Source: Leucoraja ocellata
Taxonomy: Eukaryota
Length of the DNA: 64,000 nt
NCBI GenBank assembly: GCA_036785375.1
Contig: JAWMAR010000321.1
Coordinates: 992,001 to 1,056,000, forward strand
Direction: 5' to 3'
The notes below the pieces were generated by a model that did no database searches, was not told where the DNA came from, and saw only the letters and a list, made by a program, of their open reading frames with translations. The translations under genes were made by a program, and so were the position numbers. This document shows, in pieces, positions 1 through 62,794 of this stretch. The first letter of the stretch is position 1. Each line of letters begins with the position of its first letter.

Positions 1-660
1 GTGAGATAGAAGTGTGTACCTCATCTACTGCCTCCAGTTTTCCTGATTTGGCCTCCTGTACAGTTACAAGACCAAGCATAGACTCGGCGACTATTTCGCC
101 AAACACTTGCACTCGGCCCACCAAGGCTCACTGGATTTCCCAGTTGCTAACCATTTTAACTCCTCTTTTCATTCCCACACTGGCCGTTATGTCCTGGGCC
201 TCATCCATTGCCAGAGTGAGGCCACAGGCAAACTGGAGGGAATGGCACCTCATATTCTGCTTGGTTAGCTTACAACCCGATGGTATGAACATTGAGTTCT
301 CCAATTTTAGGTAACCATCAAACATCCTACTCCACTCCCCATATGTTTCCAACCCCTCCCCGCTCTCTCTCCTGTGCTCCACCTGGACTCTCCCTTATTT
401 CTCCTCTCCTTCACCCACATTCCTTCGTCTAGCTTCACAATTCACAACTCTTTAATCCTCTTGTCTCACACCTTTTGTCTTTTCATCTCTGTCCACTGTC
501 CAATCATCTGCCTATCAAAAACCGAATCATCTGTAATCATCTATATCCACCTGCCAGGCTTTGTCCTGCTCCGCTTCTTTTCCAATCGGTCTGCAAACGT
601 CACCTATCCATGATCTCCAGACATGCTGCATAACCTAATGCATTCTCCTGTAATCTGAGC
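1..660 (+). mobile_element. Decayed Penelope-like element 3' fragment (GIY-YIG C-terminus plus 3' UTR/pLTR)
   Basis: Ends ...HLIFCLVSLQPDGMNIEFSNFR* (stop at 314), matching the C-terminus of the intact PLE ORF at 25898-26783; followed by a pyrimidine-rich UTR and decayed pLTR. Confidence 0.85.
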
Positions 661-9244: not shown

Positions 9245-10152
9245 GCGGACAAAAATGCTGGAGAAACTCAGCGGGTGAGGCAGCATCTATGGAGCGAAGG
9301 AAATAGGCAACTTTTTGGGCCGAAACCCTTCTTCAGACTGATGTGAGTGTGAGGGGATGTGGCGGGAAGAGGAAAGGAAGAGGTGGAGCCAGTGGGCTGA
9401 AGAGAGCTGAGAAGGGGAGGAGAAAGTAAGGACTACCTGAAATTGGAGAAGTCAATGTTCATACCGCTGGGGTGTAAACTGCCCAAGTGAAATATGAGGT
9501 GCTGCTCCGCCAATTTACGGTGGTCCTCACTCTGTCCATGGAGGAGGCTGAGGACAGAAAGGTCGGATTCGGAATGGGAGGGGTCCTTGAATGGAGTCAT
9601 GAAGTCTCCGATACATAGATCTCCATAGATGAGGCTCTCACCAGGTTCTCTTCTATACCCCGTGACTCTACTCTCACTCCCCAACCCCCCCCCCCACTCG
9701 CAACAAGGGCAGAGTCCCCCTTGTCCTCACCTTCCACCCCACCAGCCGTCACGTACAACAAATAATCCTCCGTCAGTTTCGCCACCTCCAACGTGACCCC
9801 ACCACTCGCCACATCTTCCCATCTCTCCCCCCCTGTCTGCTTTCCGCAGAGACCGCTCCCTCCGTAACTCCCTGGTCAATTCGTCACTTCTCACCCAAAC
9901 CACCCCCTCTCCGGGCACTTTCCCTTGCAACCGCTAGAAATGCTACACTTGTCGCTCTACCACTCCCCTTGACACCATTCAAAGACCCAAGCAGTCTTTC
10001 CAAGTACGGCAGAGGTTCACCTGCACCTCCTCTAACCTCATCTATTGCATCTGCTCTAGATGTCAGCTGCTCTACATCGGTGAGACCAAGCGTAGGCTTG
10101 GCGATCACTTTGCCGAACACCTCCGCTTGGTTCACAATAACCAACCTGATTC
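9245..10152. mobile_element. Penelope-like element with internal inversion
   Basis: Minus arm ~9245-9583 encodes SHSESDLSVL..HLIFHLGSLHPSGMNIDFSNFR* plus pLTR; plus arm ~9620-10152 encodes the upstream linker and GIY-YIG (ctctacatcggtgagaccaag = LYIGETK). Confidence 0.9.
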
Positions 10153-25580: not shown

Positions 25581-25749
25581 TAAGGCAGTGACATGTGCAT
25601 ATCTAGAACAATTCATATCTGGTACCTTTTTATATTTTCATACTTGGTTGCAATAAAATTGGTCTGAGGTGAAAGGGTTTGTTTTAAGGTTACACAAAAA
25701 AGCTGGAGAAACTCAGCGGGTGCAGCAGCATCTATGGAGCGAAGGAAAT

Positions 25750-25786
25750 AGGCAACGTTTTGGGCCGAAACCCTTCTTCAGACTGA
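25750..25786 (-). ncRNA. Minimal hammerhead ribozyme motif in pLTR (G12 mutated)
   Basis: Minus strand reads CTGAAGA A GGGT TTCG GCCC aAAAC GTT. Confidence 0.6.
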
Positions 25787-25897
25787 TCGGGGGCGGGGGT
25801 GGGTGGGGACAAGAAAGGGAAAAGGAGGAGTAGCCAGAAGGCTGGGGGATGGGAGGAGACAGCAGGGGGGCTGAGGAAGGGGAGGAGACAGCAAGGA

Positions 25898-26783
25898 CTA
25901 ACAAAATTGGGAGAATTCGATGTTCATGCCCCCGGGGTGCAGACTCCCCAAACGAAATATGAGGTGCTGTTCCTCCAATTTCCGGTGCTGCTCGCTGTGG
26001 CCATGGAGGAGACCCAGGACAGAGAGGTCGGAGGCGGAGTGGGAGGGGGAGTTGAAGTGCTGAGCCACCGGGAGGTCAGCTTGGTTATTGCGGACCGAGC
26101 GGAGGTGTTCGGCGAAACGATCGCCCAACCTCCGCTTGGTCTCACCGATATAGATCTGCTGACATCTAGAGCAGCGGACGCAATAGATGAGGTTGGAAGA
26201 GATGCAGGTAAACCTCTGTCGCACCTGGAACGATTGCTTGGGTCCTTGAACGGAGTCGAGGGGGGAGGTAAAGGGACAAGTGTTGCATCTCTTGCGGTTG
26301 CAAGGGAAAGTGCCCGGGGAGGGGGTGGACCGAGAGGGAAGGGAAGAATTGACAAGGGAGTTATGGAGGGAGCGGTCTTTGCGGAAGGCAGATATGGGGG
26401 GAGATGGGAAGATGTGGCGAGTAGTGGGGTCACGTTGGAGGTGGCGAAACTGACGGAGGATTACTTTTTGTATGTGACGGCTGGTGGGGTGAAAGGTGAG
26501 GACTAGGGGGACTCGGCCCTTGTTGCGAGTGCGGGGATGGGGAGAGAGAGCAGTGTTGCGGGGTATGGAAGAGACCCTGGTGCGAGCCTCATTTATGGTG
26601 GAGGAGGGGAACCCCCGTTCCCTGAATAGTGAGGACATTTCAGATGTCCTGGTGTGGAACGCCTCATCCGTGGAGCAGATGCGACGTAGACGGAGGAATT
26701 GGGAGTAGGCGATGGAGTCCTTACATGAAGCAGGGTGGGAAGAAGTGTAGTCCAGATAGCCATGGGAGTCAGTGGGTTTATAG
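25898..26783 (-). CDS. PLE polyprotein C-terminal fragment (RT C-terminus, Cys linker, GIY-YIG endonuclease); no native start
   Basis: Frame stays open upstream of the 246-aa ORF (YKPTDSHGYLDYTSSHP..SQFLRLRRICS); CNRKRCNTC; NLIYCVRC..IYIGETKRRLGDRFAEH..E..GMN. Confidence 0.85.
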
Positions 26784-29700
26784 TGTAAAGTGGGTTTGTT
26801 TTAACATTGTACAGCAAACACCAACATCTATCATGTAGAGATGATGCAGTATAACATATTTAGCAGATTTTGTTTTCTAAAAATTATAATTGGTATCTTT
26901 TTTGCTCAAGTGGAAGCTACAAGCCTTTTATGATATATTCAGGATATTCATAAATGAAAGTCACTCTTAAAATAAATCCTTTGGAATAATTACGTTTTTA
27001 AAGAATGTTGATTCACAAACATTTTGGTGGAGAAAGGTTAATTACTGGTTTCTTCTCGATACGACCAGTATGCGGTGGTTTTCAGTTAGATTGCAAAATT
27101 TCTGCAAATTATTTTTTGTAAGCAGCTTTTTAAAGGACAGAGCCTTTCATGATATGAAATGTATGAAACTTGGAGGGACAGTGTTGTAGGAAAGGTGGAA
27201 TGGCAATTATTTTTGTTAAGCAACAATATATGTTTTGTAAATGCATGTAATGCAATGTCCTGTCAGATTTAAACATTTAGTGCATTTACTTTTAAATATT
27301 CATTTAACACAATGACAGAATTCTCCTTGTATTCATCAAAGCAAAGTTGATGATGTCAGAAAGTTACTTTTTATAACCTCGAGGGTAATATTCTGGTTGC
27401 AGCCAATCGCCAACATATTTTAAACTTCACTTTCTTTATTTTAGTTTAGGAATATTAAATAAATTAAAGTATCACTGAAATAGATTTTCCTGGTGACCTA
27501 TAATGATGAGACTCTTGTGTAATCTGAGGCTCTTTAACATTAAGCCTGTAGCCTCTCTGTAGCCATATAAGTTTGCCTGATGCTTTCTCTGAGAGCATTC
27601 GGTCAAATCGATCATAAATTCTGTTCAATTCCTCGTGGTTACGGATCTGAAAGCAGAGGTCTGAGTGATTTTGCAATGAAATGGCCTGCTGTTCTGGGGA
27701 TTTTAGTTCTGAAGCTGTGGGAGAGTAGATGCATTTTTCAGATCAATTCAGATTACCCAAACATTGGCATGTGACAAGATGATCTATCTGATGTTTCATG
27801 GTATTCGTTGTACTGTGATTTTATGACAGAGTGTGGGAGTGGGATTTATGTTGAAGATTCGTATGTGAAGATACCTCATTTAAGTTAAAGGCCAAAGTAC
27901 TTTTCCCTGGCGCTGAGGCGTTCTTGCATAACCGCAGAGTTTGCTGGCTTAATATTAAAGAGTCTTGGATACAACTGGGGATAGCTGTTTATTATCATTG
28001 CACAAACATCACTATTCTTGGTTACCTTCAGAAGGTAGTCTTACAACCAACCATAACACCCTAAGGATTTGTGACTGTGAAATGTTTAGTTTGCTTTAAA
28101 ATGAAATAAGATGCATAACACAGAACATTAAAAAGGAACTCCGAGTGCTGCATGTGCTGCCTGTGCATTTATCTGTTGTAGCTGAGAATTTACTCAGTTT
28201 TTAGTTCCCATTTACAACTCTCTGTGTACAGGTCACTATTTTACACACTAGATATGATTGCCATGCTGCATGTAATTGGGCCATGTGTTAAACTCCAGAT
28301 TGTCTGGCATTGAAGTTGATGTGCATATGGAGTCTATTTATTGTTAAACTCCACATAACTGAAAAGGAGACATTGCCTGAGGGAGTATTTTCTGCTTGGA
28401 GAACTCACTATACTTCAAATGCAGATATATATTTTATTTTACCCACTGCTGTGCATGAAATTAAAATTTCAGTGCTGAGCAAACATGATGGACGATAGAA
28501 TAAAAAAAAACATGAAATATTTGAGATAGCAGGTTATGCAGCATCTGCGGGTAAACAAACAGTTTTAATGTTTCAGACTTTTCATCATTTGTCAGGAATG
28601 AAATTTAGTTTTATTTCAGATTTCTAGCCTTTTGCATCAAAGAGTGAAAGGGTCTTAGTTGTTTTTGTTGTGAAGCGGTGTCTGTTCTGTCATTGGATTA
28701 CATAAAGAAATGCATGCCAGCATGCCTGGAATCAAAACAAAAGCGAATGAAAATTGTTAGCACTGTTTTTAGATTGTTAAAACATTGCTGGACAATTTTG
28801 TCATGTCGATCCATCTATGTGCATTGTAACTAAGGTTTTAGATTGCAATCTCAGTGCAATAGTACAGTCACATGTTCACCAGGAAGAGCTTCCATTTTAG
28901 GGGAAAGCTACATGTACTTTAGCTGACAGAGAGGGAGGAGGAGTCTGCTTTGTAGATCAATCACTATTGCTGATTTGATTCATGTCTGGTCTATTGCTGA
29001 CCCGATCCGTAATCCATGTTGGGTTTCCACTATGCCAAGTAACCATGCTTCCAGTTTCAACTGCGACTTCGAGCCTACAGTACCTTGGAATATGATTTCT
29101 GTATGTATTCTTATTAAAGTACTTATTCTGAAGTTTTATGACTCGGTGTCAATAGTACTTTTCATGTTTCCCTCTTTATATATCAGTGCATGAAGATCCT
29201 GGTGAATGAAAGTCATATCTGAAGAGAGTTATTGAGTGTCATGAGAATTAGGCCTTCAATGGCCATAGTAAGGCTGCAGTAGATAGCTAATCAGATTATA
29301 ATAACAATGAAATCTACACAGTATGAAGCAATGTGCTCAATGCACCATGAATACCCTAGGATGTGGGTTGCTTTATATCTGCTATTTCATTTCAGCTGCT
29401 ATGCACCTCCACACATACACACAACTCGTATACCCACACTCAATCACACACAGAACCACATTCAGGCACACATCCATTTGTGGATAAAATCCAACAAGAT
29501 TGTAATTGTTGAACAATTGCAAACTTCCACTGTCTTTCAGGCCAAAGTTTTGAGAGATCGTAGGTTCATTTGGCAGGAAATAATGCAGTCCCAGCGCCAA
29601 ATGGTCTGGGTATTAAGGCAATCTAGACCCTATGTGGAGAGCACATCATAGGAATTATTAATTTCCAAGATAAGCACATTGTGTAACCTGATCATTTGCA

Positions 29701-60100: not shown

Positions 60101-60333
60101 TAGACAAAATTGCTGGATTGTTGGCAGCATCTATGGAGCGAAGGAAATAGGCAACATTTCGGACCGAAACCCTTCTTCAGACTGCTTGATCTGCTTGAAA
60201 CCCAGTCTGAAGAAGGTTTTTGGCCCGAAACGTTGCCTATTTCCTTCGCTCCATAGATGCTGCCGCACCCGCTGAGTTTCTCCAGCAATTTTGTCTACCT
60301 TCGATTTTCCAGCATCTGCAGTTCCTTCTTGAA
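60101..60333. mobile_element. Palindromic PLE-terminus insertion with two opposed hammerhead motifs
   Basis: 16-bp TSD catctga(g/t)actgaaag (60085-60100, 60334-60349); inverted arms around a short spacer. Confidence 0.9.
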
Positions 60334-60887
60334 CATCTGATACTGAAAGATGGACTGAGAAAAATGTACATTAAAATTGATTCAAAAGTTGCACACTTCT
60401 TATTTGATTCCGTATACAATTACAAGACAAATATCTGCAGAGTTACTGATAGTCAGACATCTCAGCATGCATTTGGATTTGGTGAGGCCACAGATTGGTG
60501 CTACTCTTTGTTCCAGACAGATGAAGCAGGAGATGCAACAGGACATCACCATTTGTTAGTAGATGTGTATTTAATGAAGTTTCCACATCTCTGACTGAAG
60601 CCGGCATAGTGAACGAGAACACACCTCAGGAACTAAGCACTTATGTCATAGCAGCACAACTGAGTTGCCTTGTATTGAGCAGGCAAGGATATTACCAGGT
60701 AGAATTAATCTGTAATTAGGGATATTTTAATTCTGAGGTTTTGTTGATAACATTGGACTTCTTTTGATGGTATCTTACATATATTTGAAAAAAGGTATAT
60801 ATGGTTTTCATCCAAATTAAGACAGAGGATGTATGAAAAACTTTGGGTGCTAGTACCTTGTTCATCACCTGTAATCTTATTGCTATC

Positions 60888-60906: not shown

Positions 60907-61804
60907 GTGGGAATAAAGGTAGCTGCTATCCACTCATAATGAGGACCTCATAAAGCAATCTATGAATGTTACGTAGATATTGAATGCTGTTACTATTGTA
61001 GCAGCAGGGAATTCTACTTAAAAGCAACCATCATTAAGTGATAAATTATGTTTCTGAGTGATGAAATAATTACAGAACTACTTTGAATAGAAATCCCTGA
61101 TGTGCCAAGAATAGAGTGTAATTCTCCAGGAATGCTACAGATCACGAGGTTAAACAAACATCAAAGTAGTCTATAAAGTAAGTGCAAGGAGAGAAAAGAT
61201 ATTTTAATTTCAACTTTATTTAACCATATTTGATTTGGGAATGCACAAGACTCAGAAGTGATAAATACGTGGCACATCATTAGAATTCACAAACAACTTG
61301 GTTTAACAGGAAATTAAGCCTGCAATCACAGAGTAATCCATGGAGCTCAGACGCAATTAAACCTCGTACCACGAGAGATTTGTAGATTTAAATGAACTAG
61401 AAAACAAGAGACGAATGAAGATATAAAACAAATGAATTAGAGAATAAACCTTAATGGCACCTCAGACTTTCTTTAGCTGAATACCGTCGCATGAATGCTG
61501 AAAACCGGCAAAGTCCAGATGAGGATTATTAGTAAACATTCAAAGAATGAGAAATGGCCTTTTGAAATCTAACAGGTGGAAAGGTGAACTGAACTAAATA
61601 TGAGGTCATGCAAGAATAAGTTAAAAGGATGATGAGAACCCTTGAAATAACAGTCCTGCCAAGGAATGATATTATGATAATATTCCAAATGTAAGAGGGT
61701 AATCAAAAAAGAGATGAGAACTCTAGAATTTTTTTTTTAAAGAGCCTTAAGTTAAGGGCCAGCATGATGCAATTAACATTGTAAATGAATACTTCCTTTC
61801 TATT

Positions 61805-62024
61805 GTTTAAGAAGGAACTGCAGATGCTGGAGAATCGAAGGTTACACAAAAAAGCTGGAGAAACTCAGTGGGTGCAGCAGCATCTATGGAGCGAAGGAAA
61901 TAGGCAACGTTTCGGGCGAAACCCTTCTTCAGACTGAAGAAGGGTTTCGGCCCGAAACGTTGCCTATTTCCTTCGCTCCATAGATGCTGCTGCACCCGCT
62001 GAGTTTCTCCAGCTTTTTTGTGTA
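61805..62024. mobile_element. Palindromic PLE-terminus insertion with two opposed hammerhead motifs
   Basis: 14-bp TSD acttcctttctatt (61791-61804, 62025-62038); near-perfect palindrome centred on 61933 (cttcag-a-ctgaag). Confidence 0.92.
61934..61964 (+). ncRNA. Minimal hammerhead ribozyme, intact core (mirror copy on the minus strand ~61903-61932)
   Basis: CTGAAGA A GGGT TTCG GCCC GAAAC GTT; predicted cleavage after 61961. Confidence 0.7.
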
Positions 62025-62794
62025 ACTTCCTTTCTATTATTTGGATGATTCACATTTATGCGCAGAGCAGCAATAAAGTGGTTCGTGGATGCCTCGAGGA
62101 GTAGTTTCATTTTAGCCGGTGTAAAATGCTGCTGGGATTGTGTTTCCCACCAATTTTTATTTTTAATTTCAGTGGAAATCAACTGAATCAACAAACTGTA
62201 ACTAGTCCAATATTTCCAATTTTATATTGCATCAGGTGTCTGGGGTCTAACAACTGAATTTCTGAGCTTTTTTTCCAGGAAGAAAAATGTCTATGCCTTT
62301 TGTTAGGAGAGGTTACATTTAATTTAACTACTTTAAATTAAATGGGGAGATGAGGCAAAGAAAATGCAGATTTAAATTGTTAAAAAGTAACAGAAAGACT
62401 GAGTCAAGTCCTTCATCCAGACTATGATATCCAGAATGTAATTAACTATATGCAGAGTAAATGGAGGCAAGGCTGGGATTACTTTGGAAACAATTGGAAT
62501 GACTACTGTGGGAAGTACTGGATTTTCAGACAAATTACAATGGGCCGAATAGTCATAGATCTAGATTTTGGTTACTTGTATGAAAGGAAGCACCACTTGA
62601 ATAAAATGGCCTAAACTACTGAGGTTGCTTAGTTTTTGCATTTTGTTGAAAACTGTCATGGTTGAAGCTAGTTCAGTTTAGAGCTCCATAAATGATGGTC
62701 ATAAACAGCAAATAATTTAGGTTACTTGACAATATGATATACCACATGTAAAACAAATAACGTTCACACTGTCTGCTTATTCTCCTCTGTACAG

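Follow-up and report, generated by a model that had tools for sequence, protein, structure and literature searches.

Structure of the insert and of its locus

In the stretch of 64,000 nucleotides analyzed here (the window), a 220-bp insert occupies positions 61805-62024 and is bracketed by two direct repeats of 14 bp that are identical letter for letter. The insert consists of two inverted arms that correspond to the pLTR of a Penelope-like element (PLE), and only one of them carries the additional terminal segment known as the tail. In the following, ends of arms are numbered from the C of the hammerhead CUGA, which is +1. The features of the locus and of its context in the window are as follows.

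61791-61804, no strand: left target-site duplication (TSD), 14 bp, identical to 62025-62038, present once at the empty site of run X5
61805-61932, minus strand: long arm, pLTR that begins with the hammerhead core and runs to the end of the tail, 128 of 133 aligned columns identical to the parent element
61805-61840, minus strand: PLE tail, 36 nt, only on the minus-strand arm, located between the pair of 3' ends that recur in the parent (about +91..97 and about +130..133)
61906-61932, minus strand: minimal hammerhead motif with the parental T before the core, loop II short by one base, predicted cut 61906/61905
61930-61936, no strand: axis heptamer CAG-A-CTG, a quasi-palindrome with central base 61933
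61934-62024, plus strand: short arm, pLTR that stops at the 3' end without tail, identical to the parent in 95 of 97 aligned columns
61934-61961, plus strand: minimal hammerhead motif with the first pair of helix I broken (A facing G), predicted cut 61961/61962
62025-62038, no strand: right TSD, 14 bp, identical to 61791-61804, single copy at the empty site
25686-26800, minus strand (context): 5'-truncated copy of the parent PLE with a 300-aa stretch comprising the Cys linker and GIY-YIG, a pyrimidine tract and the same hammerhead/pLTR; the tail is absent
60124-60335, plus strand (context): another head-to-head stub of this family, with 18 nt of filler at the joint

Comparison of the inverted arms (61841-61932 with 61934-62026) revealed two differences, a 1-nt deletion near 61917 and a substitution at 61869. 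The axis base 61933 separates two CTGAAGA cores, one on each strand. The predicted fold of the insert has an energy of -191.4 kcal/mol (z = -27.6), and none of 200 shuffled sequences was equally stable.

Long inverted repeats are prone to errors, and the palindrome could in principle be a fold-back chimera produced by sequencing or assembly. No single short-read contig among those listed spans the whole insert, and its axis therefore rests on the assembly. Against an artefact, a contig of run X5 (organism C) joins position 61790 directly to 62025, which represents the empty site, where the 14-mer is present once. Contigs of runs X1 and X2 (organism A) and X3 (organism B) enter the insert from the unique flank on the tail side and reach 61825-61826, while contigs of the same three runs leave the short arm at 62000-62003 into unique flank. 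Since both junctions were found in X1, X2 and X3 and the empty site in X5, the inversion and the TSD are real, and the insertion is common to two organism labels (A and B). The TSD and the two differences between the arms also speak against an artefact, as do the matches of the axis motif in the genome, 378 in forward and 359 in reverse orientation. At the level of the family the axis is crossed by short-read contigs (X1 record 3). We therefore give an artefact practically no weight. The earlier note had described a palindrome with its axis at 61933, 14-bp TSDs and a one-sided tail, and had raised the doubt that long reads might expose an assembly error; sequence comparison and short-read contigs agree with the description, and the two junctions together with the empty site answer the doubt as far as the inversion itself is concerned. 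Among the RNA runs listed, none contained the exact locus.

Beside the insert, an exon-like frame of 76 aa lies in conserved unique sequence at 62384-62614 on the plus strand. It had no match in Pfam or PDB.

The parent element and its family

The parent PLE was found by a search with the 5'-truncated copy at 25686-26800. It forms tandem units of 3,946 bp on contig C8 of the genome (G000:C8) and has an orf of 1,221 aa with RVT_1 (E 1.6e-6) and GIY-YIG (E 0.013) domains, both scoring under the curated cut-offs of Pfam. The region G000:C8:5606139-5616717 (L131:6139 to L132:6717) contains 2.7 identical tandem units with the intact 1,221-aa orf, and the array stops at the tail-less site. A long Pro-rich linker is located ahead of the reverse transcriptase (RT). 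It should be mentioned that at L131:8610-8729 a GT donor-like site at the orf stop is followed by a pyrimidine tract and by CAG directly before the hammerhead, a possible intron as in the Penelope element of D. virilis. Spliced copies were absent from the 100 listed arms, and GT..AG joints from the 15 RNA joints listed out of 121.

The arms of the insert are 96-98% identical to the pLTR of this element. An orf with RT and GIY-YIG, tandem units forming pLTRs, a tail at one end, an inverted arm and a TSD are all features of EN+ PLEs and all were observed; judged by sequence comparison, the arms of the insert derive from such an element. The presence of a Cys motif between RT and EN is, beside RT phylogeny, a criterion for the Neptune/Nematis type in the excerpts of PMC8557442 that we used, and the Cys linker in the translation suggests that the parent belongs to this type. 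The PLE origin of the insert and its manufacture by PLE machinery, both assumed in the earlier note, are thus supported, the arms being the pLTR of an RT/GIY-YIG element. The insert was also rightly called non-coding: its arms measure 91-128 bp and contain no orf.

The family is large, with 75,800 exact genome matches of a 36-nt arm motif and 36,465 of a 26-nt core. The repeat suggests a cartilaginous fish as its host. Several other members are located in the window. The copy at 25686-26800 is young, its 300-aa stretch is open, and the same insertion with the same flank is found at G000:C54:1534900-1536014, the locus being duplicated in the assembly. In the stub at 60124-60335 both arms reach -4 and the short arm is interrupted near +57. 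At 9249-9591 (minus strand) and upstream, an older PLE end follows an inverted piece of the 3' part of the orf, again head-to-head and with longer arms. Rearranged arms at 1443-1546 and 2242-2333 lie inside a larger inverted duplication with G/C runs; they resemble three other loci (L183, L184 and L232) and are probably part of another repeat that carries a stub.

Frequency of head-to-head pairs and variety of their joints

In a sample of 1,044,000 bases (1.04 Mb) with 328 arms we found 50 head-to-head, 8 tail-to-tail and 23 direct pairings. After one double-used arm and the insert at 61805-62024 had been dropped, 48 head-to-head pairs were kept. Their joints vary. Both arms extend to the start of the core in 10 of the 48 pairs and at least one arm does so in 28. 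Fillers and deletions are common at the joints and blunt joints are also present; the fillers and blunt joints between the arms suit a joining of two ends.

The exact 31-nt axis motif has 737 matches in the genome, and exact-axis copies make up 1,334 of the 36,465 young cores (3.7%). Among ordinary head-to-head joints the exact axis is favored, yet only a minority have it. Its central base was A or T, never C or G, among the first 100 of 1,334 matches listed; relative to the long arm it was T in 17 and A in 13 of 30 exact-axis copies. A GGCC defect that recurs on one arm was considered as a hairpin-linked artefact and rejected, since it reflects query bias and is rare in the unbiased axis set.

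Arm pairing rule and identity of the arms

The 30 exact-axis copies examined have 29 distinct flanks. Their long arms end between +116 and +140, while the second arm ends at +89..+104 in 22 copies, at +15..+63 in seven (six of them independent) and at +123 in one. A TSD of 12-19 bp was detected in 23 of the 30.

The combination of one tailed and one tail-less arm is not confined to this set. It was found in all 11 young head-to-head pairs, some of which have arms that extend over hundreds of bp, and in 36 of the 48 sampled pairs against 48% expected under independence (p = 1e-4). Both arms were tailed in a single sampled pair, with 16% expected, and both were apparently tail-less in 11 of 48, a count to which old copies that align short may contribute.

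Within one insert the arms share the type of positions +81..+90 in 21 of 22 cases, compared with 33% by chance, and differ at 0.9 sites, compared with 2.7 between inserts. Taken as a set, the palindromes include the same subfamily types as other tailed arms. Because the arms of one insert agree and the set spans subfamilies, each palindrome was made anew from one template. Together with the variable joints, this composition does not fit a single lineage with a fixed structure, such as a MITE- or SINE-like unit. The insert is almost certainly a dead head-to-head PLE stub of a kind that is made anew each time. Later conversion or flipping between arms could also produce the identity of the arms and the balance of A and T at the axis. 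Two loci (L010 and L011, on G000:C1121 and C2) have the same flanks and a flipped palindrome core, the axis base and one mismatch being swapped between the arms; this flip may represent either recombination between the arms or a choice made in assembly.

Distribution of the 5' and 3' ends

The ends were mapped in the first 100 of 75,800 arm-motif matches listed, of which about a dozen are segmental duplicates that were left uncollapsed. The 5' end was located beyond -700 in 20 arms, in -700..-7 in 19 and in -6..-1 in 26 (13 of them at -2); further downstream it was in +1..+27 in 30 arms, at the predicted cut site +29 in four (two events) and at +33 in one. Thus 26 of 100 ends fall within -6..-1, compared with 19 across the 694 nt upstream. 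In the whole genome, the match to the parent is lost just before G-2 in 5,836 and just before A-3 in 3,556 of the 36,465 cores, together 26%, a small part of which will be point mutation.

The hot spot is also present in old subfamilies (98 truncated solo copies) and in copies without inversion. Since the ends pile up at -2/-3 whether or not there is an inversion, the axis reflects a general 5' end located 2-3 nt upstream of CUGA. A TSD repeat of at least 8 bp lies within 8 nt of the hot-spot 5' end in 20 of 30 copies, and as the TSDs adjoin the 5' end, capture of host exons through the CAG acceptor was rejected as the source of the hot spot. Peaks of 5' ends at +18, +35 and +43 in old copies were taken as alignment effects of the young reference and were not used.

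The hot spot coincides with an Inr-like TCAGT and with the outer edge of helix I and is 28 nt away from the cut site. An axis at the ribozyme cut site was rejected, only four of the 100 listed arms (two events) starting there. The earlier note had tied the fold-back to the position of the ribozyme and had proposed to plot the breakpoints relative to CUGA. Such a plot bears out a non-random pile-up close to the ribozyme, at -2/-3; the GUU cut site is not the place where it occurs, and the joints otherwise vary. A head-to-head pair at G000:C34:2011731-2011928 (the L061 block) has both arms starting at +29 and a filler of 34 nt, and together with L189 it is a rare hint of cleavage in vivo.

The TCAGT motif, which has the form of an Inr as judged by the Inr consensus, is kept across subfamilies. 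A cap-G signature was seen in 13 of 20 ends in a small sample and in 34% of ends in the whole genome against about 28% expected; about 40 of 100 matches listed have it at -2, as counted by eye.

The 3' ends form two groups, at about +91..97 and about +130..133 in 100 young listed arms, which are about 36 nt apart. Among copies without inversion, the 3' end is most often the tail-less one. The two groups agree with the pair of RT start sites on either side of the tail in the anole element (PMC11167929).

Hammerhead motifs

Hammerhead features, numbered after PMC4209133, were scored in 72 copies chosen by their core pattern. Pairs of helix II are kept in 64-70 copies, U16.1 in 69, H17 in 71, and CG or forms of CpG decay at 15.2/16.2 in 66. 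In helix I, pair 1 is present in 54 copies, pair 2 in 57 and pair 3 in eight, which falls short of 4-5 bp. No Rfam hammerhead model matched the insert or the parent at E up to 10; on the insert, Rfam gave only sub-threshold hairpin and miRNA models. The identification of minimal hammerheads in the earlier note nevertheless holds at the level of the motif, with the core, the extra base, helix II, the palindromic 15.2/16.2 and U16.1-H17 all present.

On the plus strand of the insert, CUGA is preceded by A where the parent has T. Since just one of the two strands can have T at the axis, the plus-strand motif lacks the first pair of helix I. According to folding prediction, opening either core in the insert would cost about 33 kcal/mol, compared with 5.5-5.7 in the parent, and helix II would have a probability of 0. 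On each strand the antisense arm is transcribed first, and the hairpin is predicted to capture the core as it is made. The hammerheads of the insert are thus predicted to be sequestered in the hairpin as passengers unable to fold.

RNA reads of organism B contain head-to-head joints and hence stub hairpins are transcribed. Neither start, cut, splice nor circle signals were seen in this RNA, of which 15 of 121 joints were listed and whose libraries are unsuited to such signals. Likewise, no tail-to-core back-joints occurred among these 15 joints, from libraries without circle enrichment.

Origin of the palindromes

We consider it probable that both nicked target strands prime reverse transcription on one RNA and that the resulting ends anneal. 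The structure, the ends and the counts are observations, from which we infer the priming, the 5' end of the RNA and the annealing. In a single insertion event, the target would receive a staggered cut of 14 bp, and the 3' ends of both cut strands would prime on the same RNA. One cDNA would start at the end of the tail and the other at the tail-less site, and synthesis of both would stop where the RNA template ends, at a discrete 5' end by the Inr-like TCAGT that immediately precedes the ribozyme. The 3' ends of the cDNAs could then anneal through CAG-W-CTG with an A.A mismatch and be filled in, with either A or T left in place of the mismatch. Where cDNA ends were shorter or resected, asymmetric joints or joints with fillers would result.

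The one-tail rule, the two 3' ends, the axis restricted to A/T and the pile-up at -2/-3 argue for such double priming. A strict use of two sites does not predict the seven of 30 second arms that end early or the one at +123. The 11 of 48 pairs with two tail-less arms, the weakened cap-G signature and the lack of a start peak in the RNA of organism B (from unsuited libraries) also count against it.

Self-priming, in which one cDNA (or an antisense RNA template) folds back and is extended and an endonuclease or repair then trims the second arm at the tail boundary, would explain the identical arms as well as the early second arms in seven of 30 copies. This is the origin favored for head-to-head PLE palindromes by Arkhipova et al. 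(2013, PMC3846280), who proposed an antisense RNA template, and the tail has been ascribed to EN-mediated resolution (PMC8557442), as far as excerpts of both papers go. We regard it as unlikely here. A fold-back at CAG-A-CTG would need a loop of 1-3 nt on two or three pairs, and with a single order of synthesis the axis base should be fixed, whereas 17 T and 13 A were observed. End-joining accounts better for the fillers, which reach tens of nt, and for deletions that affect either arm. Moreover, the tail-less end that trimming would have to create is the commonest 3' end without inversion and, in the anole element, is an RT start site in vitro (excerpts of PMC11167929).

Another explanation keeps the double priming, with which it is compatible rather than exclusive, and lets the ribozyme set the 5' end: a protein-bound hammerhead, whose helix I begins at G-2, would block 5'-to-3' decay of the RNA, or factors bound to the pyrimidine tract and AG would block the RT. 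The modal end at -2 (5,836 cores) falls on the outer pair of helix I, which has 2 bp, and not on the Inr A at -3 (3,556 cores), the excess of cap-G is weak, and a pyrimidine tract and CAG precede the core. In published excerpts, the anole hammerhead is protein-assisted (PMC11167929) and the D. virilis intron stops at helix I (PMC4209133); the promoter and intron of D. virilis Penelope have been described (PMC2377424). On the other hand, TCAGT is kept across subfamilies and an Inr-like TCACT is reported for a rotifer pLTR in excerpts of PMC3846280, spliced copies and GT..AG joints are lacking in the sets of arms and RNA joints listed above, and TSDs beside the 5' ends exclude captured host exons. 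We hold a ribozyme-set end to be rather doubtful, though less so than self-priming.

The earlier note had favored an ambisense double-hammerhead hairpin, loosely viroid- or retrozyme-like, as a mobile unit; such a unit would be transcribed, cleave itself and be copied whole. At least 737 copies do share the exact 31-nt axis, head-to-head joints do occur in the RNA of organism B, and early second arms could derive from hairpin transcripts that were copied incompletely. However, only 3.7% of young cores have the exact axis, joints otherwise vary, the palindromes belong to the same subfamily types as other tailed arms instead of one lineage, and short-arm ends and TSDs differ from locus to locus. 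Starts at the cut site are restricted to the two events among the 100 listed arms. The predicted opening cost, set against that of the parent, would leave both hammerheads sequestered, and the plus-strand motif lacks the first helix I pair. The idea of a mobile double-ribozyme unit is thus largely refuted and is very improbable as an explanation of the insert.

Comparison with known systems

Inverted PLE termini had been named in the earlier note as an established structure, and indeed an inverted pLTR with a tail and TSD is already published for PLEs (PMC3846280, PMC8557442; both cited from excerpts). The insert resembles insertions of EN+ PLEs described there (Arkhipova et al., 2013; Craig et al., 2021) in its head-to-head 5'-truncated copy, its tail of 30-40 bp at one end and its TSD, and also in the palindrome at the inverted junction and the Inr-like motif of the pLTR. 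It differs from them in its short arms without an orf, in the abundance of such pairs (48 in 1.04 Mb), in TSDs that are mostly 13-17 bp long and in an axis with a preferred 7-nt microhomology. The origin of inverted PLE structures is called undefined in the excerpts of PMC8557442. In our literature search, whose coverage was incomplete, we found no proposal of two-site double priming for PLE inversions and no account of these palindromes.

With the minimal type I hammerheads of metazoan PLEs (Cervera and de la Pena, 2014; PMC4209133, excerpts) the motifs share the core, the extra base before helix II, G10.1-C11.1, the palindromic 15.2/16.2 and the absence of helix III. Dual minimal hammerheads on opposite strands are noted there at distances of 100-700 bp, whereas the two motifs abut here, and helix I has only 2 bp, as in D. 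virilis.

The Poseidon element PAc of Anolis, studied in vitro (Frangieh et al., 2024; PMC11167929, excerpts), shares with this family two start sites that bracket the tail and a hammerhead located upstream of them. Both target strands are cut and extended in that system by an enzyme predicted to be a dimer, and the hammerhead is not needed for insertion. The PAc orf begins inside the hammerhead, while that of the parent begins 165 nt downstream, and the parent differs from Poseidon PAc in its Cys linker, which suggests the Neptune/Nematis type.

Non-LTR retrozymes are defined as arrays of two or more successive units arranged head-to-tail, every one of them with a complete hammerhead (bioRxiv 10.64898/2026.07.22.740005, excerpts). 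The insert is like them in being non-coding, PLE-derived and provided with a type I hammerhead. Its head-to-head geometry fails this tandem definition, and it would predict that both hammerheads are silenced.

In the twin priming of L1, one RNA serves as template for two cDNAs, the second of which is primed by the second target strand, and the result is an inversion within the TSD. The inverted pieces of L1 are non-overlapping and arise at variable internal sites. Here, in contrast, the two cDNAs would copy one and the same segment, each from its own fixed site, with a palindrome as the result.

Meaning for the family

Taken by itself the insert is an ordinary PLE-end stub among tens of thousands, and its value lies in a testable pairing rule rather than in a viroid-like agent. 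The one-tail rule, the axis restricted to A/T and the end at -2/-3 yield sharp predictions for the anole in vitro system. As many near-perfect hairpins of about 90 bp are present in the genome and some are read through in RNA, they are a putative source of dsRNA.

It can be suggested, tentatively, that the stubs are a genome-scale record of inverted PLE insertion by one enzyme dimer that primes on both target strands, using the two RT start sites of a single RNA, with the 5' end of this RNA at the edge of the hammerhead; this may quite possibly be so, though we hold it less firmly than the double priming itself. If true, the tail at one end and the head-to-head palindrome would both be products of one mechanism, in which the hammerhead serves to mark the end of the RNA or to protect it, with no cutting role there.
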